From assembly GCA_963803145.1 (NCBI GenBank), contig CAWDLW010000051.1, positions 1 to 44,897 on the forward strand: a DNA stretch of 44,897 bases. The letters are read 5' to 3'. Under the pieces are notes generated by a model. It saw only the letters and a program-made list of their open reading frames with translations, was not told the DNA's origin and did no database searches. Shown here in pieces: positions 4,849-33,932 of this stretch (the first letter of the stretch is position 1; each line of letters starts with the position of its first letter). This DNA comes from Methanotrichaceae archaeon (GTDB lineage: Archaea; Halobacteriota; Methanosarcinia; Methanotrichales; Methanotrichaceae). The position numbers and the translations under genes were made by a program.

Positions 4849-5295
4849 TCATCTCAGCTTTTCAGCCGTCTCTTCCATTGAACTCCGCTCTGCCATGCTA
4901 GCCAAGATCTTCGGAGACTCCTGGAAGCCCTCGAGGGCATTGAAGAACCTATCCAGAGGATCGCCTTTGTAAGTTGGAACCAAGAAGATGTGGGTATGAG
5001 GTATCCTTCTCCCCCGAGCATACATACAGACAAAATCAGGCTTGAATGCCTTCATGATTCTACCAGCCACAATTCTTGCTACGCTGAAAAGACTTTCAGT
5101 CTCCCGAGCAGTTAGATCATGCCACCAGGGAACATGCCTTTTCGGTATCACTAAGCAATGGCCCTCAGCAAGAGGGTTGATGTCAAGTATCGCCAGCGAT
5201 AGATCATCCTCATAAACTCGATGGGCCTCTGCATTGCCAGCAACTATTCGGCAGAAGATACAGCGATTATCACTGCTCTGATCATCCCCGGTCAT
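4849..5295 (-). CDS. HIT family hydrolase
   Basis: CIFC, GHCLVIPKRH, IPHTHIFL (variant HxHxH); start moved to ATG 5295, which has a GAGGT RBS. Confidence 0.9.
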   Translation of the reverse strand: MTGDDQSSDNRCIFCRIVAGNAEAHRVYEDDLSLAILDINPLAEGHCLVIPKRHVPWWHDLTARETESLFSVARIVAGRIMKAFKPDFVCMYARGRRIPHTHIFLVPTYKGDPLDRFFNALEGFQESPKILASMAERSSMEETAEKLR

Positions 5296-11669: not shown

Positions 11670-11740
11670 GCCGGGGTGACTGACCGGTTAAGTGCGCGGC
11701 TGCAGACCGCGAGAATTGGGTTCGACTCCCAATCCCGGCC
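11670..11740 (+). tRNA. tRNA-Cys(GCA), atypical (C73 discriminator)
   Basis: Hand-folded cloverleaf: acceptor GCCGGGG/TCCCGGC, anticodon stem CGCGG/CCGCG with CT-GCA-GA loop, T stem TTGGG/CCCAA with TTCGACT loop; no encoded CCA. Confidence 0.9.
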
Positions 11741-11742
11741 TT

Positions 11743-13188
11743 ATGAGGATTCATAATACTCTGAGTGGCGATAAAGAGCCACTACAGACAATTCACAAAG
11801 GTCGTATCAATCTATTTGTTTGCGGTCCGACCGTTTATGACGATTCCCATATCGGCCATGCCAGGACCTACATCGCCTTTGATGTAGTTGCTCGCTATTT
11901 CAAGTACAAAGGCTTCAGCGTTTTCTACCTGCAAAACATAACCGATGTGGATGATAAGATCATCAATAGAGCCGCTGAGCTGCACGTTTCACCCTTAACG
12001 CTGGCACGCAAATTCGAGCGAAGATACCTGGAGGATATACGTGCCCTTGGAGTAACTAACGTCAACCTTTATGCCAGGGCAACTGAGCATATCCCTGAGA
12101 TCATCAGCCAGATAGAAAGGCTGGTGGAAAAAGGATTTGCATATGAGACGAAGACTGGCGTTTACTTTGACGAGTCCAAATTCGACGATTTCGGGAAGTT
12201 GTCGCATCAAACCACAGAGGACCTGGAGAAACACAGGATAGAGCCGGACCTGAGCAAGAGGAACCCTGGAGACTTCTCCCTCTGGAAGAAACGGCAAGAT
12301 GGAGAAGAAGTTATCTGGGACTCGCCCTGGAGCGAAGGCCGCCCCGGGTGGCACATAGAGGACACGGCCATTACCGAGACCTACTTTGGCCCTCAGTACG
12401 ATATCCACGGTGGAGCAATGGACCTGATATTCCCCCATCATGAGGCTGAGATTGCACAAATGGAGGCGGCCTCTGGAAAAAAACCGTTGGTTAGATACTG
12501 GATGCATACCGGCTTTCTAAACGTAAAGGGCGAAAAGATGTCCAAATCGCTGGGAAACTTCATCACAATCAGAGAGATGCTTCAACGGTACGATGCCGAA
12601 TCATTCAGGTTTTTCGTTCTTTCTGCACATTACCGAAGTTCTATTGATTTCTCCGAAGCAGCTCTCGAGCAGTCAAGCAAAAGCTTGGCGAGGATTCGTC
12701 AGCTTGCTAGGATCATAGACGAGCAAATCGGGATGAATAAAGAGATTAATGAAGAGAGTATCCCACAATCATCGGAAACTGAAGAGATCGATGCTAGTGT
12801 GGTTGAGGCAAAAACAAAATTTTTGGAGCATATGGATAACGATTTCAATACACCTTATGCTCTTCGTGTTATCTTCGAGCTTGTAAGAGATGTGAATCGG
12901 CGCATAAGCGAGAAGACGATTTCTAGAAAGGCGCTTTTCGATGTTAAGGCTTTTCTGGAAGAGGCTGGAGAAATCCTCGGCTTACGCTTCTCTGGGGCAG
13001 AGAATGAGGCTATGGGAGCTGCAGAGGATTTGACTGTAAACCTGATTGAGCTCTTGATCGATATACGGCAGAAGCTCCGTGAGAAAAAGGACTGGCAGCT
13101 TGCGGATGAGATACGAGCTAGGATGAATGAAGTGAACATCGTCCTAGAGGATACTAAGACCGGAGGTGGAGGATACACGATTAAATGA
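11743..13188 (+). CDS. cysS: Cysteinyl-tRNA synthetase
   Basis: CGPTVYD, HIGH, GRPGWHIE, FPHHEAE, KMSKS and anticodon-binding C-terminus; true start ATG 11743 (the ORF-track extension runs through the tRNA). Confidence 0.97.
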   Translation: MRIHNTLSGDKEPLQTIHKGRINLFVCGPTVYDDSHIGHARTYIAFDVVARYFKYKGFSVFYLQNITDVDDKIINRAAELHVSPLTLARKFERRYLEDIRALGVTNVNLYARATEHIPEIISQIERLVEKGFAYETKTGVYFDESKFDDFGKLSHQTTEDLEKHRIEPDLSKRNPGDFSLWKKRQDGEEVIWDSPWSEGRPGWHIEDTAITETYFGPQYDIHGGAMDLIFPHHEAEIAQMEAASGKKPLVRYWMHTGFLNVKGEKMSKSLGNFITIREMLQRYDAESFRFFVLSAHYRSSIDFSEAALEQSSKSLARIRQLARIIDEQIGMNKEINEESIPQSSETEEIDASVVEAKTKFLEHMDNDFNTPYALRVIFELVRDVNRRISEKTISRKALFDVKAFLEEAGEILGLRFSGAENEAMGAAEDLTVNLIELLIDIRQKLREKKDWQLADEIRARMNEVNIVLEDTKTGGGGYTIK

Positions 13189-14604: not shown

Positions 14605-16143
14605 ATGGGAATCGGCATTGCCCTAGACCTGGGAAGCAGCGGCTTTCGCGCTCATGCCGTCGATCTTTCTGAAGGCGACATCCTAATGGGAGCCAGCACA
14701 TTATGCCACCCACTACCAGGCGGCAATGTCGTCGACCATATACTATTTTCGCTGACTTACGGGCATGGCCTCGCCCATGATATCGTGATGGGGACCATTA
14801 ACAAGCTTATCGAATCAATAACGATGCCAAAGGAGGTCGAGCTGATTGCAGTCTGCGGAAATCCAATTCAGCTCTCCATATTCACCAATGGAGAGCTAAG
14901 AGATCTAGCTTTCAGCCCTGATGCGATGATGCGAAAGGGTATCTGCGTCCCTACGAGAGATGGACAGATCCTTGATGCCAAGTCGCTGGGCCTCAATGCC
15001 CGCTGCGACGTACTTGTTCCCCCATCCATCAAAGCAGAGGTTGGCGCTGATGCCATCGCCATGATTATCAAGTCAGGCATGATACAGAAGAAACTGGCCA
15101 TCGCTATCGATTTTGGCACTAATGCAGAGATGGCTCTAAAGTCTGAGGGCTGCATATTCGTGGGTTCAGCCGCGGCTGGACCTGCCATCGAAGGCCAGCA
15201 CATCAGCCACGGGATGCTGGCAGCTCCCGGAGCCATCTGCGACATGGAATATGATTGGGGCTGGAAATGTAAGGTGCTTGATGAACAGATGTTGCCCAAA
15301 GATGGCGATACAGTGGACTTCACAGAGAGAAAAATGATTACGAAGCGCAACATTCATGCCGTAGGGATCACGGGCACTGGTATCATAGCGCTTATCTCCA
15401 TAGGTCTTGGTGCTGGATATATCGACCCGCCCCACATAGCCATCAATTCCGGGAAGCTGTCGCTGCAGGATGGCATTGAGTTCGGAGAGGAGGATCTCCT
15501 GGAAGCTGGCAAGGCCTTTGGAGCTATGAGCGCAGGCGAAAAGACCCTGGCATCAAGCGCAGGCATTTCTTTGGAAGAGATCGATGACTGTTTCATGGCA
15601 GGAGCTGCCGGGAGCTATGCAGATCCTTACAAAGCAAGGGATGTGGGGCTAATACCCTCCAATACGAGGATTGTGCATCAGCTTGGGAATACGTCTCTCG
15701 AAATGGCCGCGGACCTTGTATCCGGCAAGGAGACACTGGAGGGAATGCATAAGATTGCGGACTGGACGAAGCATATCTCCTTCTCCACGAGCGAGACGTT
15801 CAAGCAAAATTATCTCTCGGAGTATGCCTACTGGTGTGAAGGAGCACGTTATCCGAAAAAGAAGGCTGGTCCAACCGCTGATAGGTCAGCTATGGAAATT
15901 GTCAGGGCTGTGAAAAATGTAGCAAGAATCCCTACGAAATATTTCCGCCTCATCTACTGTATCCCTTTCTTAAAATCCCACGAGCAGTGCATTCAGATCT
16001 GTCCGAGAAAAGCTCTTCTGCCGCGAGATGGCTGCTTTGAGTTGAATCTGCAGCGATGTCAGGGTGCGTCATGCCTCAGGTGCGAGCACGCCTGCTCTGG
16101 GTTCAAGCTTGGGGTTAATCGAGTTGAGATCCTAGAAGTTTGA
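14605..16143 (+). CDS. RamA-like ATP-dependent corrinoid protein reductive activase (ASKHA fold plus C-terminal Fe-S domain)
   Basis: GIALDLGSSGFR, HPLPGGNVVDH, DFGTNAEMAL, SAAAGPAIEGQ, GITGTG and C-terminal Cys clusters. Confidence 0.88.
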   Translation: MGIGIALDLGSSGFRAHAVDLSEGDILMGASTLCHPLPGGNVVDHILFSLTYGHGLAHDIVMGTINKLIESITMPKEVELIAVCGNPIQLSIFTNGELRDLAFSPDAMMRKGICVPTRDGQILDAKSLGLNARCDVLVPPSIKAEVGADAIAMIIKSGMIQKKLAIAIDFGTNAEMALKSEGCIFVGSAAAGPAIEGQHISHGMLAAPGAICDMEYDWGWKCKVLDEQMLPKDGDTVDFTERKMITKRNIHAVGITGTGIIALISIGLGAGYIDPPHIAINSGKLSLQDGIEFGEEDLLEAGKAFGAMSAGEKTLASSAGISLEEIDDCFMAGAAGSYADPYKARDVGLIPSNTRIVHQLGNTSLEMAADLVSGKETLEGMHKIADWTKHISFSTSETFKQNYLSEYAYWCEGARYPKKKAGPTADRSAMEIVRAVKNVARIPTKYFRLIYCIPFLKSHEQCIQICPRKALLPRDGCFELNLQRCQGASCLRCEHACSGFKLGVNRVEILEV

Positions 16144-16673: not shown

Positions 16674-17604
16674 TCATGGAAACACTGCCGATAAGCTGCC
16701 GATGTATTGCCGATATTTTGCCGATAAACTATAGGATCTAGCCCAGCGTGAAGGATTTGAGACCTCCAGCCATCCGTCTTTAACCCAAGCTCCAAGAAGG
16801 TTCCTGGCCATGCGCTCTGATAGGCCCAGCTCTTCAGCCACTTCTGGAGCAGTGATGGTCTCTTTTTTAGCAAAGAGGCCCAAGACTACCCTTGCTCTGT
16901 GATCCAGGCGGCGCAAATCCTCAGGCTCAGCGGGCGTTCCATTCTCTGCACACTTCTGGGCCCTCTGCCTGACGGCTTCGAAGACCTCTGCCAAAGTGGA
17001 TATGAAGTATTACATCTGCTAGCGATAAGTGTTTTTCAAAGATTAAGTAAAGATCCTGTCCGTCGATTCCAATTATAGACGTTGGCTGAAGTCTTTGAAA
17101 GGCATATACACTATCGGGCGAGAAGTTGCCACATGTAATGAAAATACCACGGCCAATTCTTGAATGTCCTGAAGCTCGACCATGCAAGGCTAGCAGATCC
17201 TTCTCAATAATTGGGTTCGTTTGCCACCTTGCTTCAATCAGATAAAACTGATGCTCGAATTCAATACTTCCGTCTATTTGTTCTCCGGTATTTCTGAAAG
17301 ATGGTCTCGGGTTGAACCCATAGATTTCAAATAGATCATAGAGCAATTTTTGGCGTATATGCTCTCTGCCCTTTCTTTCAAGCTCCTGCTCTTCATGGCG
17401 AAATCTGAAATCTGCATACTTGAGAAATATCAGCCCTAGGACCGGCAAAGAATACTCAGAAGCTTTCAGCTTGGAGTTGACCCTAAGTTCGTCAGCCGCA
17501 CCCCAAAGGCGCTTTTCGATATCGTTGTGGTTTCCGGGCACTATTGTTTCATCTCTTGGAGTATCTTGCCTCGAATTTTGGCCTGGTTCTTCAAACCAGA
17601 ACAT
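16674..17604 (-). pseudogene. Mosaic remnant: HsdM N-terminus, Mrr-like restriction endonuclease domain and an HTH fragment resembling a Fic-protein C-terminus
   Basis: [20 protein letters not shown] (type I M subunit start), GEQIDG..YLIEARW (PD-(D/E)xK-like); overlapping frame carries ITAPEVAEELGLSERMAR HTH. Confidence 0.7.
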
Positions 17605-20914: not shown

Positions 20915-21081
20915 TTGATCCTTCAACCCATTTATCTCCTTGAATTGAGGTTGACGATGAAAGTACATTATACCCCAGGTTTGGGCAATTGGCAAAGTTA
21001 GATTGAATAGAGTTACGAAGGGATTAGACGCTACCGTGCTGGTAAAGCTCGAATCCTTCAATACACAAAAACCGCGTAAAT

Positions 21082-21834
21082 ATGTTTGTTTGCGGTCCAA
21101 CGGTCTACGACGACTCTCACATAGGCCATGCAAGAACCTATATCGCCTTCGATACGGTAGCACGCTATCTCAAGTATAAGGGATTCAGCGTTTTTTATCT
21201 TCAGAATATAACAGATGTGGATGATAAGATCGTCAATAGAGCCGCTGAGCTTAGCGTCTCTCCTACAGACCTTGCACAGAAATATGAGCGAAGATACCTT
21301 AAGGACATGCATGCGCTCGGCGTAGAGAACGTTAACCTTTATGCATGCGCCACAGATCACATACCTGAAATCATAGATCAGATAAAGGCGCTAGTAGAAA
21401 AGGGATTTGCATACGAGACAGAGACGGGCGTTTATTTCGACGAGTCTAAGCTGGAGGATTTCGGAAAGCTATCGCACCAGACAGCCGAAGACCTGGAGCG
21501 GCATAGAATAGAGCCCGACCCCACAAAGAGAAATCCTGTCGATATTCTCTCTCTGGAAAAACGGGAGGACAGCGTTGATGTTACCTGGGATTCGCCCTGG
21601 GGCAGAGGGCGTCCAGGCTGGCATATAGAAGATACAGCAATCACAGAGACCTATTTCGGCCATCAATACGATATCCACGGCGGCGCTATGGATCTGATTT
21701 TTCCACATCATGAAGCTGAGATCGCTCAGATGGAATCAGCTTCAGGGAAAAAGCCGATGGTGCGATACTGGATGCATACAGGATTTCTGAGGGATATGGG
21801 AATCATCCTGGAAGATTCGAAAATCAAAAGCTGA
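21082..21834 (+). pseudogene. cysS: Truncated second cysteinyl-tRNA synthetase copy
   Basis: Very similar to the 11743 copy up to WMHTGFL, then jumps to the terminal ILED motif (KMSKS and most of the anticodon domain deleted); N-terminus eroded; local compensated frameshift at GDFSLWK. Confidence 0.85.
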
Positions 21835-22032
21835 TATGCAGCTCAAAATGCATGAAGTGGTCAATAACAGTAGATCTCTACTTCATATTTATCACAGATA
21901 TTCATAATGTTTTCTGAAATCTTTACCTTTTATCCCAATTGATGCTTCTTAAAAGTTAGAAATACTCAAATATTGCCGCCATAAAAAGCCTTATATTGTT
22001 CTATATTAGATCAATAATTGGTGAACTAAAAA

Positions 22033-22312
22033 ATGAGGGATCGCCTTTGCACCACTCGAGGATGAGAGTCCTCACCTGAAGATAGAGCGGCTACCGCCGT
22101 CGGCAAAGCTTGTTTTGAAGGTGCTTGAATCAGGCAGCCTTCTGACGCAGAAGGATATAATAAGTAAGACATATCTTCCTGCCAGAACCGTTAGATATGC
22201 GCTAAGCAGACTTAAGGAGGAGAATCTCCTGGAAGAGCGCTTCTACTTCCAAGATGCGCGCCAGAGCCTCTATGGGCTGAATGCTCAGACCGAGGAGGTG
22301 GTAATCGGATAA
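22033..22312 (+). CDS. wHTH transcription regulator (LPPSAKLV...TQK...RTVRYAL...DARQ family), split across frames near the start
   Basis: HTH frame is open from 22037, but its first ATG/GTG/TTG (22115) is inside the conserved domain; ATG 22033 opens an out-of-frame 10-aa ORF MRDRLCTTRG. Confidence 0.75.
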
Positions 22313-22362
22313 TCCTTTTGGTTTATCCGTGCGCTTTTCCAGAAGAATTGATGGAGATTAAA

Positions 22363-22662
22363 ATGCTTCCTATTAAATTGCAGCTTAAAAGAAAGCAAGC
22401 AGATGGCTATGTAATACCACTTGGGCCAGTTAATCTGGTCAATGTAGTTACGGATGTAGGAATGGTGGGTTGTGGGGCCTTTGATGTAGCAGCCTTGAAT
22501 AACTTCGGCTATCCTGCAGCCAAGGTCAGACCTTCTAAGGGTAACTCGATTGCTACTATCGATGATCTTTTGGATGGAATTGTCAAAGAGGTGAACCCAG
22601 CAGCAGAAAAGCTGGGTTTGAAAGTTGGCATGGCTGGCAGGGAGGCGCTCGACCTGCTTTAA
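22363..22662 (+). CDS. YunC/DUF1805 family protein
   Basis: GMVGCGAFDVAAL, TIDDLL and LGLKVGMAGREAL motifs; GGAG RBS before ATG 22363. Confidence 0.88.
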   Translation: MLPIKLQLKRKQADGYVIPLGPVNLVNVVTDVGMVGCGAFDVAALNNFGYPAAKVRPSKGNSIATIDDLLDGIVKEVNPAAEKLGLKVGMAGREALDLL

Positions 22663-27042: not shown

Positions 27043-27086
27043 GTTCACGGTTGTGAACATCAGATAACAATTGTTATGTATATAAA
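27043..27086 (-). promoter_or_regulatory. pscS-metY-metX promoter: TATA box plus tandem palindromes
   Basis: TTTATATA on the minus strand, then ATAACAATTGTTAT (27064-27077) and GTTCACGGTTGTGAAC (27043-27058). Confidence 0.75.
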
Positions 27087-28142: not shown

Positions 28143-29282
28143 ATGGGAAAGGAGAATTTGATTGCGATGAAAGACGTTAGAGAGGAAAAAGGTAAACAAA
28201 TTGTAGATCAAGATCACATATTCCAAGTCACTACTACCTCTTTCGTTGTAAAATCGCAATCAAGCCCTAGATTCTATAATGTCGATAAGACTTCTATAGG
28301 CTGGAAATGCAATTGCCCCGATCATAAGTTCAGAGGTTCAAAGTGCAAACATATTTGGGCAGCGCAATTATGCTCAGGAATTAAAGAGCAGGCAAAGCGA
28401 AACATTGTATTAGAGCCAGTGAAAATTTCAGATTGCCCCTATTGCCATTCGCAGAACATCAAAAAGTATGGTGCTAGACATAACAAAGATGGGGATCTTC
28501 AGAGGTTTGCCTGTAAGGATTGTGGCAGAACATTCAGCATTAACATAGGCTTTGAGCATATGAAGCACAATCCAAAAGCAATAACAGCAGCCATGCAACT
28601 TTATTTCAGTGGCGAGTCCCTACGAAGCACACAGAGATCATTGAAACTTATAGGTGTCGAAGTGTCTCATCAGACCGTTGCCAACTGGATTGCAAAGTAT
28701 ACCAGAATCATGAAGGCATACGTGGACAATATCAAGCCTGATGTAAGCTCAACTTGGCGAGCTGATGAGGTATTCCTCAAAATAAAGGGGGATCTCAAAT
28801 ATCTGTTTGCCTTGATGGACGACGAAACCCGCTACTGGATAGCTCAAGAGGTCGCAGATACCAAAGATAAACACGATGCAAGAGCCCTTTTCAGAGAGAG
28901 CAGAGAGATTGCAGGCAAAAGACCTGAGACACTAATAACCGATGGACTCCAATCATACCATGATGCCTTCAGAAAGGAATTCGCTACAAGCCGTGCCCCT
29001 CAGTCTCAACATGTTAATGCAATTCGTCTTCAAGGATCGAAAAACAATAACAAAATGGAAAGAATAAATGGCGAAATTCGAGATCGAGAGAAGACCATGA
29101 GAGGCTTAAAGACTAAAACCACCCCAATCTTACAAGGGATGCAGATCTATCATAATTACATAAGACCTCATGAGGCCCTTGATGGGAAAACACCATCTGA
29201 AGCATGTGGTATTGAGATCAGGGGAGATAATAAATGGATTACATTGATTCAGAACGCGAGTCAGAAAGTGAAAGTTAAATAG
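28143..29282 (+). CDS. IS6/IS240-like DDE transposase with N-terminal SWIM finger and Zn ribbon
   Basis: CNCPD..CKH (SWIM), CPYC..CKDC, HTH, WRADE, ITDG, NNKMER and HNYIRPH motifs. Confidence 0.92.
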   Translation: MGKENLIAMKDVREEKGKQIVDQDHIFQVTTTSFVVKSQSSPRFYNVDKTSIGWKCNCPDHKFRGSKCKHIWAAQLCSGIKEQAKRNIVLEPVKISDCPYCHSQNIKKYGARHNKDGDLQRFACKDCGRTFSINIGFEHMKHNPKAITAAMQLYFSGESLRSTQRSLKLIGVEVSHQTVANWIAKYTRIMKAYVDNIKPDVSSTWRADEVFLKIKGDLKYLFALMDDETRYWIAQEVADTKDKHDARALFRESREIAGKRPETLITDGLQSYHDAFRKEFATSRAPQSQHVNAIRLQGSKNNNKMERINGEIRDREKTMRGLKTKTTPILQGMQIYHNYIRPHEALDGKTPSEACGIEIRGDNKWITLIQNASQKVKVK

Positions 29283-29807: not shown

Positions 29808-30857
29808 AAAATCACCTCATAACTTTTAACAAAAATTGATTAGTTCTAACTAAAAGCGCTATAAAAACGAGCCTAAAGCATTTATATTCTCCCTTTAAAA
29901 AGCCTGAGTTCTTTAATATTTAAAAATCGGATTATTGATAATTTATAAACAATTAAATCTTATGCGTGATAGAATTTTCTTTCCTTTGTGAGAATATTAA
30001 ATATATGCACATCATTAAGTTTAAATCCTGGCATGCTTTTAATTTATCTTAGCAACTAGATTCAACGCGTTTTCTTTTCTTCACGACAGAAGAGAAGATG
30101 CTGAGAGGATAGTTGACTACGTAAATCGAGGTGAGATATTTGACACGAGAAATCGTGCACGCAGTGAAAATTGTATTGCACCTCATACTGCTGCTGATGA
30201 CTGTATTAGGCTATTAGCAGTAGCGTAGCCCGAAATTGCCAAGCATTCGCCACATTCACTAGAATGCTTGGCATAAGTACGGCGCGAGTTCTTTTTTAGA
30301 AGATTGTAATAATGAGAATGGCAGACTCAAAGAGCCCGCCATTCAAGGATATTAAGTCGAGCCAACCACAGCCAGACTTCAATCCTCCTACCTATGATAC
30401 CTAGCGCCTCACCACGCACGACCGTGAAAGAGGCCATTCTTTCTAAAGCTTGTAGTTTCGCAGACCACGACAAGAGCCACGCAGTGATGAAACTCTTGCG
30501 TAGCCCGCTACCGATGCCACATATCGGATATGCTACGCCTTAGAAATTGGACATCGATAGGTAATACTTCTTTTGAAGGAAGTAATATTTAGCTTTTCTC
30601 TCTTTAATTCGCTTTTAGAGCGCCTTTTTAAACTTTCTTGATTAGCAATCGATCGATTTATATCTTTTCTCCCTAAATGCGCGATAATCATAACATATTA
30701 AACATATTTATTCCATTAGCTGGCATTTAGCAACATGAGGTTGTTACGATTCCCTTATCCGCCGACCATCATGCAACAATACCAACAACCGATTTTTGAC
30801 ACCAAAAGATTCAGACCAAAACAACCTAAGACTTTACAGAACCTCTGGCCAAAACCG

Positions 30858-30903
30858 TTATATCCGTAACAATTGTTACATTACCCAGTTAACAATTGTG
30901 AAT
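30858..30903 (+). promoter_or_regulatory. Antiporter promoter: TATA box plus tandem palindromes
   Basis: TTATAT at 30858, GTAACAATTGTTAC (30866-30879), GTTAACAATTGTGAAT (30888-30903). Confidence 0.75.
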
Positions 30904-30909
30904 AAAGGT

Positions 30910-32213
30910 ATGTGGATGCTGGGACGCCAGAATGGCCTGCTATGGATCATAACATTAGCGCTAGCAGGATTTGCAGCTGCACAAGGCTACCCTGTGCTTT
31001 TTCAGCTATGGCTTCTTCTCGCATCAGCTCTGTTTTTCGGCAATCTTGCAAGACGCATGGGCCAGCCTGCAGTGCTTGGCGAGATACTGGCAGGTATAAT
31101 TCTTGGGCCGACTGTACTCGGCTGGCTGGCACCAGATGTGCAGCCCTGGCTGTTCCCTAAAAACCAAATTGTCCAGACGATAGCGTATATTGGGCTGATA
31201 CTGTTTGTATTCACCGCCGGCCTTGAGGTCAATCTGGCCTACGTAAGACGCCGAAGACGAAGTGCTCTGCTTACCAGCATCTCAGGCGTAATTCTGCCAT
31301 TTGCACTGGGATTTGGTATGGTCACTCTGCTGCCTTGGCTATGGAGCATTCCGTCTGGCGATCTGAGAATCTTTGCGCTCTTCATGGGAACAGCTCTCTC
31401 CATATCAGCCCTTCCGGTCATAGCCAGAATCCCCTCATGGATCTCGATCTCATGAAGATGGAGCTGGGCTCAATGATAATAAGTGCCGCAACGATCGATG
31501 ATATCATCGGGTGGTCTCTCTTCGCCCTTATCTTGAGCATCTTGAATACCGGAATGGGCCTGGCGCTTAACCTGAGCCTGACTGTAGGAGCCCTTGCTCT
31601 GACAATCTACTTAATACATTTAGAAGCTAGAAATGATGCTATATTGCATTCTCGTCATATTGGAAGCCTCATAGATATAGTGGCGATATCCATGCTGGCC
31701 ATATCATTTGTAGCTGAGGCCATAGGTACTCACGGCATCGTATGTGCCTTCCTGTCAGGAGTTATCCTCTCTCAGAGGCACGTTAGACGAGACCTTATCC
31801 TGAAAAATATACGTCCTCCGGCCATGGATATACTGGTGCCGATTTATTTTGCCTCCATAGGGCTTAAAGCAAACTTTGTAACCAACGTCGATCTGACCAT
31901 TGTTATTCTAATTTTCATAGTGGCCTGTGCAGGCAAGATTATTGGAGCAAGCTCTGGAGCAATGGCTGGCGGTATTGCTAGAAAAGAAGCATTAGCAATC
32001 GGGTTCGGAATGAACGCCAGAGGGGCAATGGAAATCGCTCTAGCATCCGCTGCACTAGACTACGGCTTAATCGACCAGCGTATCTTTGTGGCCTTGGTAA
32101 TCATGGCTCTCGCAACATCGATGATTAGTGGCTCGATGATCCAGCATTTCATATCTAAGCCGCTTAGTGAAGGATATTCAGGAATCAGGCCATCCTCCTC
32201 GATCCATGATTGA
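30910..32213 (+). pseudogene. CPA2 cation:proton antiporter, frameshifted near 31430
   Basis: QPAVLGEILAGIILGP...ISALPVIARI continues as LMDL...AATIDD...PIYFASIG...ARGAME in another frame; break at ATCCCCTCATG. Confidence 0.85.
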
Positions 32214-32958: not shown

Positions 32959-33561
32959 TCATACTTGTGTTGCCTTAAAGGAGGCTGTATTCAGCCCATA
33001 CAGACTCTGACGTGCATCTTGGAAGTAAAAGCACTCCTTGATCACGCGCTCATCTTTAAGCCTGCTTAAGGCATACCGGACAGTTCTCGGCGGAAGGTCT
33101 GTCTTGCTTATGAGATCCTTCTGCGTCAGAGGACCATCAGATGTCAGGACATTGAAGACAAGCCGTGCGGAAGGCGGCAGATACTCTACAACATCCAGAT
33201 CAGGCGGACCTACTTCATCAGAATAAGCTGAAGAAGCACTAGGATATGTGCTTACTTTGCCAGAGTATGGAGAAACTGCCCATGCGCCTTCCTTGCTCTC
33301 CGAACGGGAGCTGCCCTTGCCGAGGTAAGAATAGCCAAGACCGTACACTTCTATACTGGAAGATGGCGAGATCTGACCGGGACAGACGCATATCTGGGAA
33401 GTGCAGGAACCATCTGGGGTTTTGCCGCAGCAATCCATCCCTTTTGAACCGCCACAACACCCGGACATGCAAGCACAATTCTTTCCAGTGGGCATTGAGA
33501 GAGCGGGGGCTACAATAAGGCTGAGGATTGCTAACGTCACGAGCAGTTTTATAATCTTCAT
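32959..33561 (-). CDS. Signal peptide, Cys-rich segment and C-terminal wHTH regulator (paralog of 22033)
   Basis: GGAGGT RBS before ATG 33561; MKIIKLLVTLAILSLIVAPALS; 9 Cys in 32 aa; C-terminal LPPSARLV..TQKD..RTVRYALSRLK..FYFQDARQSLYGLN. Confidence 0.8.
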   Translation of the reverse strand: MKIIKLLVTLAILSLIVAPALSMPTGKNCACMSGCCGGSKGMDCCGKTPDGSCTSQICVCPGQISPSSSIEVYGLGYSYLGKGSSRSESKEGAWAVSPYSGKVSTYPSASSAYSDEVGPPDLDVVEYLPPSARLVFNVLTSDGPLTQKDLISKTDLPPRTVRYALSRLKDERVIKECFYFQDARQSLYGLNTASFKATQV

Positions 33562-33584
33562 CCCACTTACCTCCAGTTCCCTCT

Positions 33585-33608
33585 TGGAGTTCACAATTGT
33601 GAACTCCA
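33585..33608 (-). promoter_or_regulatory. Perfect 24-bp palindromic operator TGGAGTTCACAATTGTGAACTCCA
   Basis: Core begins 31 bp downstream of the minus-strand TTATATA box of the HTH-fusion gene. Confidence 0.8.
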
Positions 33609-33932
33609 TAGAAAGGAGGAGTTATCAATATATAAAAAGCTATCTGAATATACGATGAGTTATCGCCTAAACTTGGACAATATATATTTGGCCGCCCTGG
33701 AACGCCTAATTATAGCGGCCCTGAAAAGCAATCATGTGCAAGCATATTGACATTTTCATTGGACTTTCACCACATATATGCATATTTATTTGGAATATAT
33801 TTACTAGTAATCACAATTAGCTGCGCAAACTACCACCGACATTTGCCTAAACCCAAATCGTCATATGGGATTGAAGTTTATCTTCTTGATGTAAGCTGTG
33901 CGCCAGTCCACTGGATGATAGGTGGGAATCGA

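Follow-up and report, generated by a model that had tools for sequence, protein, structure and literature searches.

In leader-peptide attenuation, a very short open reading frame (ORF) led by a Shine-Dalgarno (SD) sequence contains codons for the regulated amino acid, and the ribosome reads the supply of the charged tRNA. In the yeast element Ty1, a +1 shift at the sense-codon site CUU_AGG_C relies on a scarce tRNA isoacceptor and not on charging. Bacterial prfB, the gene for release factor 2 (RF2), undergoes an autoregulatory +1 shift at CUU_UGA with an SD sequence 3 nt upstream, and prfB frameshifting in Flavobacterium works without SD pairing (PMC10798248). The antizyme sensor and hungry-codon shifting have also been described (PMC8211752). 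For cellular genes of archaea, there is hardly any record of programmed frameshifting, and a 2021 review lists one proven -1 case (PMC8211752, section 7). Described archaeal recoding comprises a -1 frameshift in fucA1 of Saccharolobus solfataricus, a proposed +1 shift in the tail gene of the haloarchaeal virus HSTV-2 and a proposed Mg-chelatase case in Methanococcales, and the passages concerned contain no prfB-like +1 site in a cellular archaeal gene (PMC8211752, PMC5009743). A full-text literature search returned no natural cysteine-specific hungry-codon frameshift and no paper joining frameshifting with the taxa considered here or with cysteine sensing, supplementary tables of predicted frameshifts (e.g. 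Antonov et al. 2013) lying outside the scope of the latter.

Reading frames and proposed mechanism at the window locus

The locus lies in a stretch of 44,897 nucleotides, here called the window, from a Methanotrichaceae archaeon. A preliminary description had interpreted it as a putative prfB-like +1 frameshift site that produces a transcription factor. Comparison with relatives supports this interpretation, and we suggest that the winged helix-turn-helix (wHTH) gene is probably expressed by prfB-like programmed +1 frameshifting, which is the best explanation overall. The parts of the locus are the following.

21985..22010, + strand: putative archaeal promoter, A/T-rich and TATA-like, CTTATATT / TCTATATT, from sequence inspection
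22020..22024, + strand: SD sequence GGTGA, eight bases before ATG 22033, from the sequence and from relatives
22033..22065, + strand: zero-frame leader ORF, ATG...TGA, the first five codons of which would make the N-terminus of the frameshift product
22034..22036, + strand: TGA that closes the wHTH frame and overlaps the ATG
22036..22042, + strand: internal SD-like element AGGGATC, complementary to the genome's own 16S 3' tail ...GGAUCACCUCCU
22043..22044, + strand: variable two-base spacer GC, the only freely varying positions of the block
22045..22048, + strand: putative slippery site CTT_T, with Leu CUU as the P-site codon and re-pairing with UUU
22048..22050, + strand: Cys codon TGC, which is the A-site codon in the zero frame and is proposed as the sensor
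22049..22312, + strand: winged-helix regulator, its body in the +1 frame, with 87 codons and a final TAA
22351..22662, + strand: DUF1805 gene, 38 nt downstream of the wHTH gene (Pfam PF08827, E = 4e-25)

The zero frame from ATG 22033-22035 reads ATG AGG GAT CGC CTT TGC ACC ACT CGA GGA TGA (MRDRLCTTRG-stop), with the TGA at 22063-22065 and the Cys codon five codons past the start. The wHTH frame is +1 relative to it, is open from 22037, ends with TAA at 22310-22312 and gives GIAFAPLEDESPHLKIERLPPSAKLV.... Its earliest canonical start is TTG 22115, within helix 1, and ATG, GTG and TTG are absent before this helix. A shift from CUU (22045-22047) to UUU (22046-22048) yields 5 + 87 = 92 residues with zero Cys. 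This confirms the preliminary description, which had noted the lack of an ATG, GTG or TTG start before LPPSAKLV, the stop 10 codons after the first AUG and the entry of a CUU-to-UUU slip into the HTH frame to give 92 residues without Cys. As to other ways of supplying a start, we rejected read-through of TGA 22034, because a second in-frame TGA lies at 22022-22024 and there is no start between the two stops. A tRNA search with aragorn found genes for tRNA-Leu(GAG) and tRNA-Phe(GAA) in the window's genome.

In the model that we propose, ribosomes would initiate at the SD-linked AUG 22033 and read AUG AGG GAU CGC CUU. With CUU occupying the P site and UGC the A site, peptidyl-tRNA-Leu (anticodon GAG) would move one base forward onto UUU, and decoding would resume at GCA in the +1 frame to give the 92-residue, Cys-free winged-helix protein MRDRL/APLEDES..., in which the predicted junction peptide, LAPLEDESPHLK, follows MRDR. 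The internal SD-like AGGGAUC, two bases before CUU, would pair with the 16S 3' tail and probably aid the slip as in bacterial prfB. Normal decoding of UGC would lead to termination after 10 codons. The slip would compete with the entry of Cys-tRNA(Cys) into the A site, the yield of regulator should climb when charged tRNA-Cys is scarce, and the cassette would serve a sulfur-assimilation regulon by letting the ribosome sense how much cysteine or sulfur is available. We infer that the slip occurs, that the SD-like element plays a part in it, that it depends on Cys-tRNA, and what the regulator targets.

The window protein scores 21.6 bits against Pfam HTH_24 (PF13412; cut-off 21.9) and matches MarR_2 weakly. 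Its match to the NCBIfam model MsvR reaches 20 bits against a cut-off of 220, and a PDB sequence search with it found no relative. Many of the 972 homologues that were found carry a precomputed PF13412. There are also long paralogues, which add a signal peptide and a Cys-rich domain to a wHTH that is 70% identical; the score of the long paralogue against HTH_24 is 28.2 bits. The DUF1805 gene probably shares an operon with the wHTH gene. Of 77 other cassette genes, 16 have a DUF1805 within their fetched flanks, mostly just downstream and on the same strand.

Conservation of the cassette and the choice of start

The frame geometry and the cassette are established by comparison. The block SD-ATG-(0-3 codons)-AGG-RAU-YNN-YUU-UGY stands at the head of all 78 distinct cassette-type homologues, a count that, like every count given here, overstates the support because related genomes are not independent. 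These homologues belong to Methanothrix, Methanoperedens, Methanosarcinaceae-like genomes, Methanospirillum and Methanoregulaceae, and the signal is kept in several methanogen orders. Cultured species with the cassette include Methanothrix soehngenii, Methanospirillum lacunae and M. purgamenti. Each of the 78 has the ATG in frame 0, the wHTH in the +1 frame, and YUU followed by UGY. The distance from ATG to YUU is 4 codons in 64 loci, 6 in three (Methanospirillum) and 7 in 11 (Methanoperedens); the ATG is thus mobile among loci, with the frame always kept. A GGTGA or GGAG lies 6-10 nt upstream of the out-of-frame ATG, and relatives carry a similar AAAAGCCTTATAT upstream, to be compared with the putative promoter. 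The wHTH frame is closed by a TGA at the matching place in 76 of the 78 homologues and by a nearby TAA in two. The zero frame stops 2-24 codons past YUU, and in 23 of the 78 (L023 and 22 others) it stops immediately after the Cys codon, while in locus L068 the +1 frame opens only at GAAGGAAUC. Together, this opening and these zero-frame ends confine the shift to the block RGGRAUY-NN-YUU-UGY, in which YUU_U is the only place allowing re-pairing. We consider it quite probable that a +1 frameshift at YUU_U makes the regulator protein.

The preliminary description had predicted a conserved out-of-frame AUG followed by CUU-UGY, and the pattern turned out to be far stronger than expected. Of 117 sites of the form ATG...AGKRAT at which the zero frame is short and the +1 frame long, YUU and UGY are both present in 96 and both absent in 21, and none has only one, so that the two occur together in 96 of 96 cassettes. 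The strict 18-mer pattern ATGAGGRATCNNYTTTGY is present in 54 of 401 genomes, a sample from the phylum, and in 10 families, with a reversed control giving 0 of 401. In the window's genome, AGGRATCNNYTTTGY occurs once, at the window locus, with no control match. The relaxed pattern AGKRATNNNYTTTGY gives 10 matches in this genome against 5 in the control, which is near chance, and a scan allowing any codon after YTT gives 117 sites, of which 13 besides the window's own have long +1 frames. We rejected these 13 as further cassettes, since 11 lie inside ordinary genes and two (C8:147464 and C8:152055) have in-frame ATGs just downstream. From the two scans, the window's genome has one cassette. A partial match, GGATCGCCTTTGT at window positions 4958-4970, lacks an SD-ATG and lies inside a minus-strand ORF, and was attributed to chance.

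Within the block, individual bases are kept. All 78 cassettes have TTT as their "Phe" triplet, whereas the same genes use TTC in 62 of 65 and 56 of 65 cases where Phe is conserved. Likewise, ATC is found in 78 of 78 cassettes, compared with ATA 13, ATC 31 and ATT 27 at a conserved Ile/Leu position, and AGG is found in 77 of 78, the gene bodies using mostly AGA. The RAT and the C of the SD-like element are each invariant (78/78). The slippery codon is CTT in 59 and TTT in 19 of the 78, always followed by T, and the A-site Cys codon is TGC in 65 and TGT in 13. Zero-frame codon 4 varies synonymously (CGC 16, CGT 46, CGA 10; in addition CTA 5 and CAT 1), and its changes, if read in the +1 frame, would give A, V, D or Y. 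The wHTH body shows clear protein-level conservation with synonymous variation.

The spacer between the SD-like element and YUU is 2-3 nt. Over the cassette loci, the anti-SD duplex profile has a minimum at the initiation SD, with a mean of -6.3 kcal/mol. The predicted duplex of the SD-like element with the 16S tail is stronger than that of the initiation SD (mean -9.7 kcal/mol over the cassette loci, -11.5 kcal/mol for AGGGATC in the window), and the Methanoperedens variant AAGGAAUC is predicted to pair weakly with the anti-SD (-4.0 kcal/mol), so that support for a role of the SD-like element is uneven. No RNA structure is predicted near the site, the fold of 22015-22125 having a z of -0.88 and being equalled by 33 of 200 shuffles.

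The preliminary description had cautioned that other genes in the window have indels. Indeed, the neighbouring cysS copy is truncated and the CPA2-type transporter gene is split into two ORFs, and a pseudogene or a sequencing or assembly indel would be in keeping with such damage. However, homologues from many assemblies share the one-base offset (78 of 78), the pattern recurs in the 54 of 401 genomes, and the wHTH body is conserved as protein. Moreover, four contigs assembled independently from three samples, which are related strains 90-99% alike, have zero indels across 22033-22050; their only indels are at 21859-21917, 22017 and 22028, all upstream of ATG 22033. On these grounds, we rule out a sequencing error or a pseudogene, the probability of which we hold to be negligible. 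Alternatively, correction of the frame might precede ordinary decoding or bypass it, the means being transcriptional slippage or RNA editing at the site's short U-run or a tRNA with a four-base anticodon. Known transcriptional slippage tracts are far longer than 3 U, which is the full length of the run in 59 of the 78 cassettes (CUUUG). As for the tRNA, CUUU and UUUU would require two different ones, and the sole odd aragorn call, 'cgta', resolves to an intron-containing tRNA-Tyr, leaving no candidate in the genome. Such routes are extremely improbable in our estimation, if marginally less so than an indel.

The site is of importance for annotation as well. Gene callers give the wHTH family of the cassette inconsistent and truncated starts. 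Across 120 public homologues, classified by script with 14 of them also inspected in full, there is no consistent start; 24 calls begin after LPPSAK, many begin exactly at the L of LPPSAK, and PGAP starts some M. soehngenii copies at an AUC codon (P0005 MYFAE..., P0032 MDFAE...). As a separate observation, three of the 120 (P0004, P0038 and P0103) have TGG for TGA and an in-frame upstream Met and may bypass the shift, as may locus L084, which has a GTG in the +1 frame at the block.

The many calls at or inside helix 1 would suit a short protein starting at TTG 22115 (65 aa) or at another internal codon, with the block as a non-coding regulatory element of the 5'-UTR such as a binding site for a protein or an RNA. 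Yet LPPSAKLV and the residues preceding it are kept as protein in all relatives, including haloarchaeal ones with an ordinary upstream ATG, and the +1 frame is open from the block to helix 1 despite varying length and sequence. In a 65-residue form the winged helix would miss its helix 1, a start at TTG 22115 is not conserved, and the RNA folding result does not favor a structured element. A canonical in-frame start before LPPSAK is absent in 65 of the 78 homologues, and the other 13 have an ATG, GTG or TTG at non-conserved places; an in-frame start in orthologues, which the preliminary description had raised against its own reading, is therefore not a conserved trait. The short form is in our judgement very unlikely.

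A more serious competitor is a start of the wHTH at a non-canonical codon, either AUC/AUU 22040 or CUG 22076, with the ATG leader as a separate Cys-containing upstream ORF (uORF) that modulates this start. The product of the AUC start would begin (M)AFAPLEDESPHLK. An AUY is conserved at that place (ATC 78/78; ATT on other genes), the NCBI records P0005 and P0032 begin there, and a regulatory uORF would likewise need an in-frame Cys codon. However, the distance from the SD to the AUC is 15 nt in Methanothrix and exceeds 24 nt in Methanoperedens type 2, whereas the SD's spacing from the ATG is canonical in all types, and a ribosome on the uORF would cover the AUC. Such a start also leaves unexplained the invariant U-run against the genes' own preference for TTC, the constant pairing of YUU with UGY, and unshifted paralogues that begin with MRDIFA in the ATG frame. 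The latter are found at four Methanoperedens loci, where paralogues start in frame with ATG AGG GAT ATT TTT GCA (MRDIFA...), have zero-frame ORFs of 96-97 codons and are one base shorter than the cassette. Their M-R-D-I-F-A starts fit the proposed product M-R-D-R-L/A. Finally, CTG 22076, a start that the preliminary description had also considered, is not conserved in relatives. We regard a non-canonical start as unlikely and continue to favor the +1 frameshift.

Cysteine, sulfur and the proposed sensor

The methanogens and ANME archaea bearing the cassette make cysteine largely on tRNA, by SepRS and SepCysS. In the window, the wHTH gene has TauE, the cysS remnant, DUF1805, metX-CBS, metY and SepCysS (pscS) as neighbors. 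This setting among cysS, pscS, metY and metX, which had been pointed out from the start, is real and recurs: one of these four genes lies within 3 kb of 27 of 77 other cassette genes, including those of Methanospirillum and Methanoregulaceae, and the linkage to sulfur and cysteine genes is seen in three orders. The products are poor in cysteine, 65 of 76 being Cys-free, with Cys at 0.19% compared with 1.25% in a crude proteome of the window's genome. Palindromes are found at the promoters of 36 of 76 cassette genes and in 0 of 152 control segments, and the pscS-metY-metX operon has similar, operator-like palindromes a short way downstream of its TATA box (27045-27076); other palindromes are at 30867-30901 and 33591-33602. 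The window's own promoter is without a good palindrome. In addition, the cassette heads 20 unrelated neighboring genes, which encode a TPR protein, a 125-129-aa Cys-free protein and small peptides, and on these non-wHTH genes it is in frame with each gene's own SD-ATG. In all 96 cassettes, which head genes of at least four unrelated families, the zero-frame A-site codon is UGY and never UGA, another stop or another rare codon.

The invariant UGY, the cysS, pscS, metY and metX neighbors, the Cys-poor products and the operator-like palindromes at the pscS promoter together suggest that the frameshift senses Cys-tRNA, to which we give an even chance or slightly less. The frameshift could instead be real but constitutive at a fixed low ratio, giving a low expression level or representing a tolerated ancestral indel, with the Cys codon incidental. 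Sites like that of prfB shift at 5-50% without an amino-acid signal (PMC10798248), and UGY could be kept for context and not for sensing. This reading would have to accommodate that UGY is invariant on at least four unrelated gene families and never swapped for a stop or other rare codon, that the residue at this position in the unshifted paralogues is A, S, T or I, that the products are Cys-poor, and that linkage to sulfur and cysteine genes is seen in three orders. We think a constitutive shift possible but rather doubtful.

The sign of regulation is an uneasy point of the sensor model. The position of the operator-like sites at pscS, downstream of the TATA box, looks like that of repressor sites, and a repressor made at low Cys-tRNA would give the wrong feedback if the small wHTH protein binds there. 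The long Cys-rich paralogues, with their 70% identical wHTH, could be the binders instead. In its broadest form, the proposal is that methanogens and ANME archaea have in the cassette a portable sensor with which the ribosome gauges Cys-tRNA(Cys) charging. Under a shortage of charged tRNA-Cys, the slip would yield regulators and accessory proteins that lack Cys and readjust sulfur assimilation (pscS-metY-metX, cysS). We put this slightly below an even chance.

We know of no established regulator for sulfur assimilation or tRNA-dependent cysteine synthesis in methanogens. If the cassette reports Cys-tRNA charging, it would offer a testable answer to how these pathways are regulated. Cellular genes of archaea would then have their first programmed +1 frameshift, which would also be the first frameshift switch in nature that is tuned to a single amino acid. 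More generally, a conserved +1 site at a Cys codon would show that the prfB mechanism, with a slippery CUU_U and an internal SD, works on archaeal ribosomes and has been re-used as a sense-codon switch that can be moved between genes as a module.

Comparison with known systems

Among small archaeal wHTH regulators of the HTH_24/MarR_2-like type, the cassette protein is familiar in being a single wHTH of ~90 aa with palindromes at the genes' own promoters. It differs in having no curated family, no sensor domain and no Cys, and its likeness to the MsvR DNA-binding domain is weak. The fucA1, HSTV-2 and Mg-chelatase cases likewise concern programmed frameshifting on archaeal ribosomes, but their direction, sites and genes differ from those of the cassette. 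With an attenuation leader, the cassette shares a very short SD-led ORF with a Cys codon. However, it has a single such codon, no terminator or antiterminator structure and no conserved downstream sequence, and it would act by moving the ribosome into the frame of the regulated ORF and not by a decision on transcription. As in Ty1 and hungry-codon shifts, a P-site CUU would slip by +1 at a slow sense codon, and the shift would serve as metabolic sensor and effector; the Ty1 and antizyme cases are found in eukaryotes or retroelements.

The design resembles that of prfB. In both, a short zero-frame ORF precedes a main ORF in the +1 frame, peptidyl-tRNA-Leu re-pairs from a slippery CUU_U onto UUU (as proposed here), the following zero-frame codon starts with UG, and a purine-rich SD-like element complementary to the 16S tail lies upstream, at 2-3 nt in the cassette. 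In both, competition between A-site decoding and slippage would set the outcome. In the cassette, however, the A-site codon is a sense codon, UGC or UGU (Cys), and not UGA, and the sensed factor would be Cys-tRNA and not RF2. The host is archaeal, the encoded protein is a wHTH protein and not RF2, the site lies 4-7 codons after the start, and UUU_U is also accepted as a slippery site. If pairing runs through GAUC, the spacer would be 2 nt and the 5' part of the anti-SD would be used, unlike in E. coli prfB. Lastly, and again unlike prfB, the cassette is a portable module found on the wHTH regulator and on several unrelated genes.

Reading frames of the regulator gene

The small winged-helix (wHTH) regulator gene at 22033-22312 is headed by a block of the form SD-ATG-(0-3 codons)-AGG-RAU-YNN-YUU-UGY, referred to here as the cassette. 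The sequence at 22020-22065 reads GGTGA-N8-ATG AGG GAT CGC CTT TGC ACC ACT CGA GGA TGA, and the zero frame, i.e. that of ATG 22033, gives MRDRLCTTRG and then stops. By contrast, the +1 frame, one base on from the ATG frame, is open from 22037 to the TAA at 22310-12 and codes for GIAFAPLEDESPHLKIERLPPSAKLVLKVLESG..., a predicted winged-helix protein (Pfam HTH_24, 21.6 bits with a cut-off of 21.9; weak MarR_2 match). Two stops close this wHTH frame upstream, TGA 22022-24 and the ATG-overlapping TGA 22034-36; the earliest ATG, GTG or TTG in the frame is TTG 22115, within helix 1. A +1 slip from CUU 22045 to UUU 22046 would yield 92 residues without Cys. Frame translations and a start scan agree exactly with the preliminary description of the frames, the slip position and this product.

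A sequencing error as the source of the one-base offset is ruled out by indel-free independent contigs together with the conserved arrangement in relatives. In independently assembled contigs (four runs, three samples, related strains), 22033-22050 contains no indel, all of their indels being upstream of the ATG, and the offset is upheld in contigs from all three samples.

Elsewhere in the window, a cation/proton antiporter-like gene at 30796-32213 (+) is split into overlapping ORFs (30796-31455 and 31335-32213); this split reflects either a frameshift or an indel from assembly, and the cassette is absent there. The following features are unrelated to the finding:

14605-16143 (+): RACo-like ASKHA protein
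16927-17604 (-): HsdM_N/Mrr-like restriction-related ORF
28143-29282 (+): IS240/IS66-like DDE transposase

Conservation and constraint of the cassette

Homologues were found in 22 of the 41 related genomes searched, and in 26 of 30 fetched loci there is a conserved ATGAGGGATC...TTTG block whose TGA is directly followed by the start of the open frame. When one genome per species was scanned, 80 further named loci were added, in Methanothrix and other Methanotrichaceae, Candidatus Methanoperedens, Methanospirillum, Methanoregulaceae, one Methanosarcina MAG and haloarchaea. The block is present in 78 of 117 deduplicated family members and absent from 39, namely haloarchaeal genes that use ordinary ATG starts, unshifted paralogues, and long paralogues that combine a signal peptide with a Cys-rich domain; because the counted genomes are related, the counts given here overstate independence. 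All 78 cassette genes have a frame-0 ATG with GGTGA or GGAG 6-10 nt upstream and the wHTH in the +1 frame, and the ATG precedes YTT by four codons in 64 loci, six in three and seven in 11. The expectation that orthologues would share an out-of-frame AUG and CUU-UGY was borne out in 78/78, in the form YUU-UGY (CTT 59, TTT 19; then TGC 65, TGT 13). The zero frame stops 2-24 codons past YTT, in 23/78 immediately after the Cys codon.

A few copies could bypass the shift by initiation within the +1 frame: L084 has a GTG in this frame, and in the public records P0004, P0038 and P0103 TGG replaces TGA and an upstream Met is present. PGAP starts some copies at the AUC codon. Among the cassette genes, only 13/78 offer an ATG, GTG or TTG after the +1-frame stop and upstream of the conserved wHTH motif LPPSAK, and none is conserved. 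In locus L068, the +1 frame is not open before GAAGGAATC, and TGC is the last sense codon of the zero frame in L023 and others. Thus, the shift is confined to RGGRAUY-NN-YUU-UGY, within which re-pairing of the P-site tRNA is possible only at YUU_U.

Codon usage argues that the constraint is on bases and not on the +1-frame peptide. The +1-frame "Phe" triplet is TTT in 78/78, while two conserved Phe positions in the gene body are TTC in 62/65 and 56/65; ATC is found in 78/78 cassettes, while a conserved Ile/Leu position is ATA in 13, ATC in 31 and ATT in 27; and AGG is kept in 77/78 despite a preference for AGA in the gene body. Substitutions in zero-frame codon 4 are mostly synonymous (CGC 16, CGT 46, CGA 10, CTA 5, CAT 1), giving A, V, D or Y when read in the +1 frame, and beyond UGY the zero frame is not conserved. 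The codon with which translation would resume in the +1 frame (22049-51 in the window) is GCA in 20 loci, GCC in 26, GCT in 19, GTC in three and GTT in 10. It is never GCG, yet these genes encode a conserved Ala most often by GCG (32/64); G therefore never follows UGY directly, and the shift may depend on this context.

In four Methanoperedens loci, unshifted paralogues start in frame with ATG AGG GAT ATT TTT GCA (MRDIFA...) and have zero-frame ORFs of 96-97 codons; these paralogues are one base shorter than the cassette. It follows that the family's N-terminus is encoded in the ATG-AGG-GAT frame; the expected frameshift product, M-R-D-R-(L/F) followed by (A/V), agrees with the paralogue N-terminus.

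The same block heads 20 other genes in the flanks of fetched loci, where each copy shares the frame of an SD-ATG of its own and leads into a +1 ORF, for example:

L056, 541-927 (-)
L067, 1316-1702 (-)
L093, 2355-2729 (-)
L063, 2234-2362 (+)
L037, 3395-4060 (+)

Their predicted products include a conserved protein of 125-129 aa that lacks Cys (…ERLGRPEFHRIRIGLERL…) and faintly resembles DUF3209, a TPR protein in Methanothrix, and small peptides of ~40 aa ending in VWWLI. A census by geometry only (ATG within 7 codons, then AGKRAT; zero frame at most 35 codons, +1 frame at least 30) gave 117 sites with YTT and TGY together in 96, neither in 21 and one alone in 0. A strict 18-mer occurs in 54 of 401 sampled genomes of the phylum (10 families) and its reversed control in 0/401; the window's own genome has one cassette. 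As judged from these comparisons, the cassette is a module and a real, conserved recoding signal, and probably a programmed +1 frameshift at a Cys codon.

Gene context and the proposed link to cysteine

The regulator's neighbours in the window are a TauE-family gene, a truncated cysS copy, a DUF1805 gene and an operon for SepCysS (pscS; TIGR02539, 397 bits), O-acetylhomoserine sulfhydrylase (metY) and homoserine O-acetyltransferase-CBS (metX). Profile matches thus recover the cysS/pscS/metY/metX neighbourhood noted in the preliminary description, with a cysS copy that has lost ~480 nt of its 3' part relative to relatives, in which full-length cysS ends just before the cassette; in a sister genome the copy is reduced to ~48 residues. 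Both routes of Cys-tRNA charging, SepRS and an intact cysS, are encoded in the genome.

11670-11740: tRNA-Cys(GCA) gene, at the 5' end of intact cysS, overlapping its called GTG start
11692-13188 (+): intact cysS, 498-aa ORF
21058-21834 (+): truncated cysS copy beside the regulator (Pfam positions 4-248 of 301)

The DUF1805 gene (22351-22662, +) starts 38 nt past the regulator, is found in the fetched flanks of 16/77 other cassette genes and is a candidate member of the regulator's sulfur-linked unit.

One or more of cysS, pscS, metY and metX lie at most 3 kb from 27 of 77 other distinct cassette genes, with pscS and metY as the neighbours in Methanospirillum and Methanoregulaceae. UGY is invariant in cassettes; unshifted paralogues carry A, S, T or I there. 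The predicted cassette products are Cys-free in 65/76, and their Cys content is 0.19%, compared with 1.25% in the crude proteome of the window's genome. Tentatively, we suggest that the cassette plausibly senses Cys-tRNA.

In 36/76 loci, the cassette is preceded at a distance of 27-30 nt by a palindrome with a ACAATTGT core (control segments, 0/152), and the window has six matches where 1.95 are expected. The pairs are TAACAATTGTTA with TTCACAACCGTGAA and TAACAATTGTTA with TTAACAATTGTGAA, and the promoters of the pscS operon and the CPA2-type gene have a common upstream 'AACAACC..ACTTTACAGAACC' block.

27045-27076 (-): two operator-like palindromes just downstream of the pscS-metY-metX TATA box
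30867-30901 (+): two operator-like palindromes before a CPA2-type transporter gene, behind a similar TATA-like promoter
32959-33609 (-): long paralogue, 216 aa, ordinary start, wHTH ~70% identical to the regulator
33591-33602: perfect palindrome TCACAATTGTGA before the long wHTH paralogue

The sites at pscS follow the TATA box and so are placed as for a repressor; a regulator made at low Cys-tRNA would give the wrong feedback if it bound there. The long Cys-rich paralogues, with a wHTH 70% identical, may instead bind these sites. The one in the window has a signal or transmembrane segment and a Cys-rich stretch (CACMSGCCGG..CCG..C..C.C), its relatives (197-259 aa) adjoin cassette genes in other Methanotrichaceae, and it may serve the same regulon as a membrane-anchored sensor for sulfide, metals or redox state.

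Comparison with known recoding

In the accessible text of a 2021 review, archaeal recoding comprises only three cases, i.e. the fucA1 -1 frameshift, a +1 shift in a haloarchaeal virus and a proposed Mg-chelatase (PMC8211752), and the portion available of the 2016 Atkins review adds nothing further for methanogens or cysteine (PMC5009743). Our literature search, which covered the openly available main texts, found no paper on such a cassette.

The AGGGAUC element is complementary to the 16S tail of the same genome, ...GGAUCACCUCCU, with a predicted duplex of -11.5 kcal/mol in the window. Over the cassette loci, the mean duplex profile has two minima, -6.3 at the initiation SD and -9.7 at the cassette; for the Methanoperedens variant AAGGAAUC, predicted pairing is weak (-4.0). 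The genome carries genes for tRNA-Leu(GAG), tRNA-Phe(GAA) and tRNA-Cys(GCA); intron-aware parsing left no four-base-anticodon tRNA in it, and in fold prediction no RNA structure stands out at the site. In the proposed mechanism, the P-site tRNA would re-pair from YUU to UUU while the Cys codon UGY occupies the A site. In E. coli prfB, as described in the part of the source available, the slippery-stop is CUUUGA with an SD 3 nt upstream, and peptidyl-tRNA-Leu moves from CUU to UUU during the A-site wait (PMC10798248). The layout of the cassette is parallel, except that its A-site codon is Cys UGY while that of prfB is the stop UGA. The cassette would act in the manner of prfB without belonging to that system: its site contains no stop codon, RF2 is not involved and the host is an archaeon.
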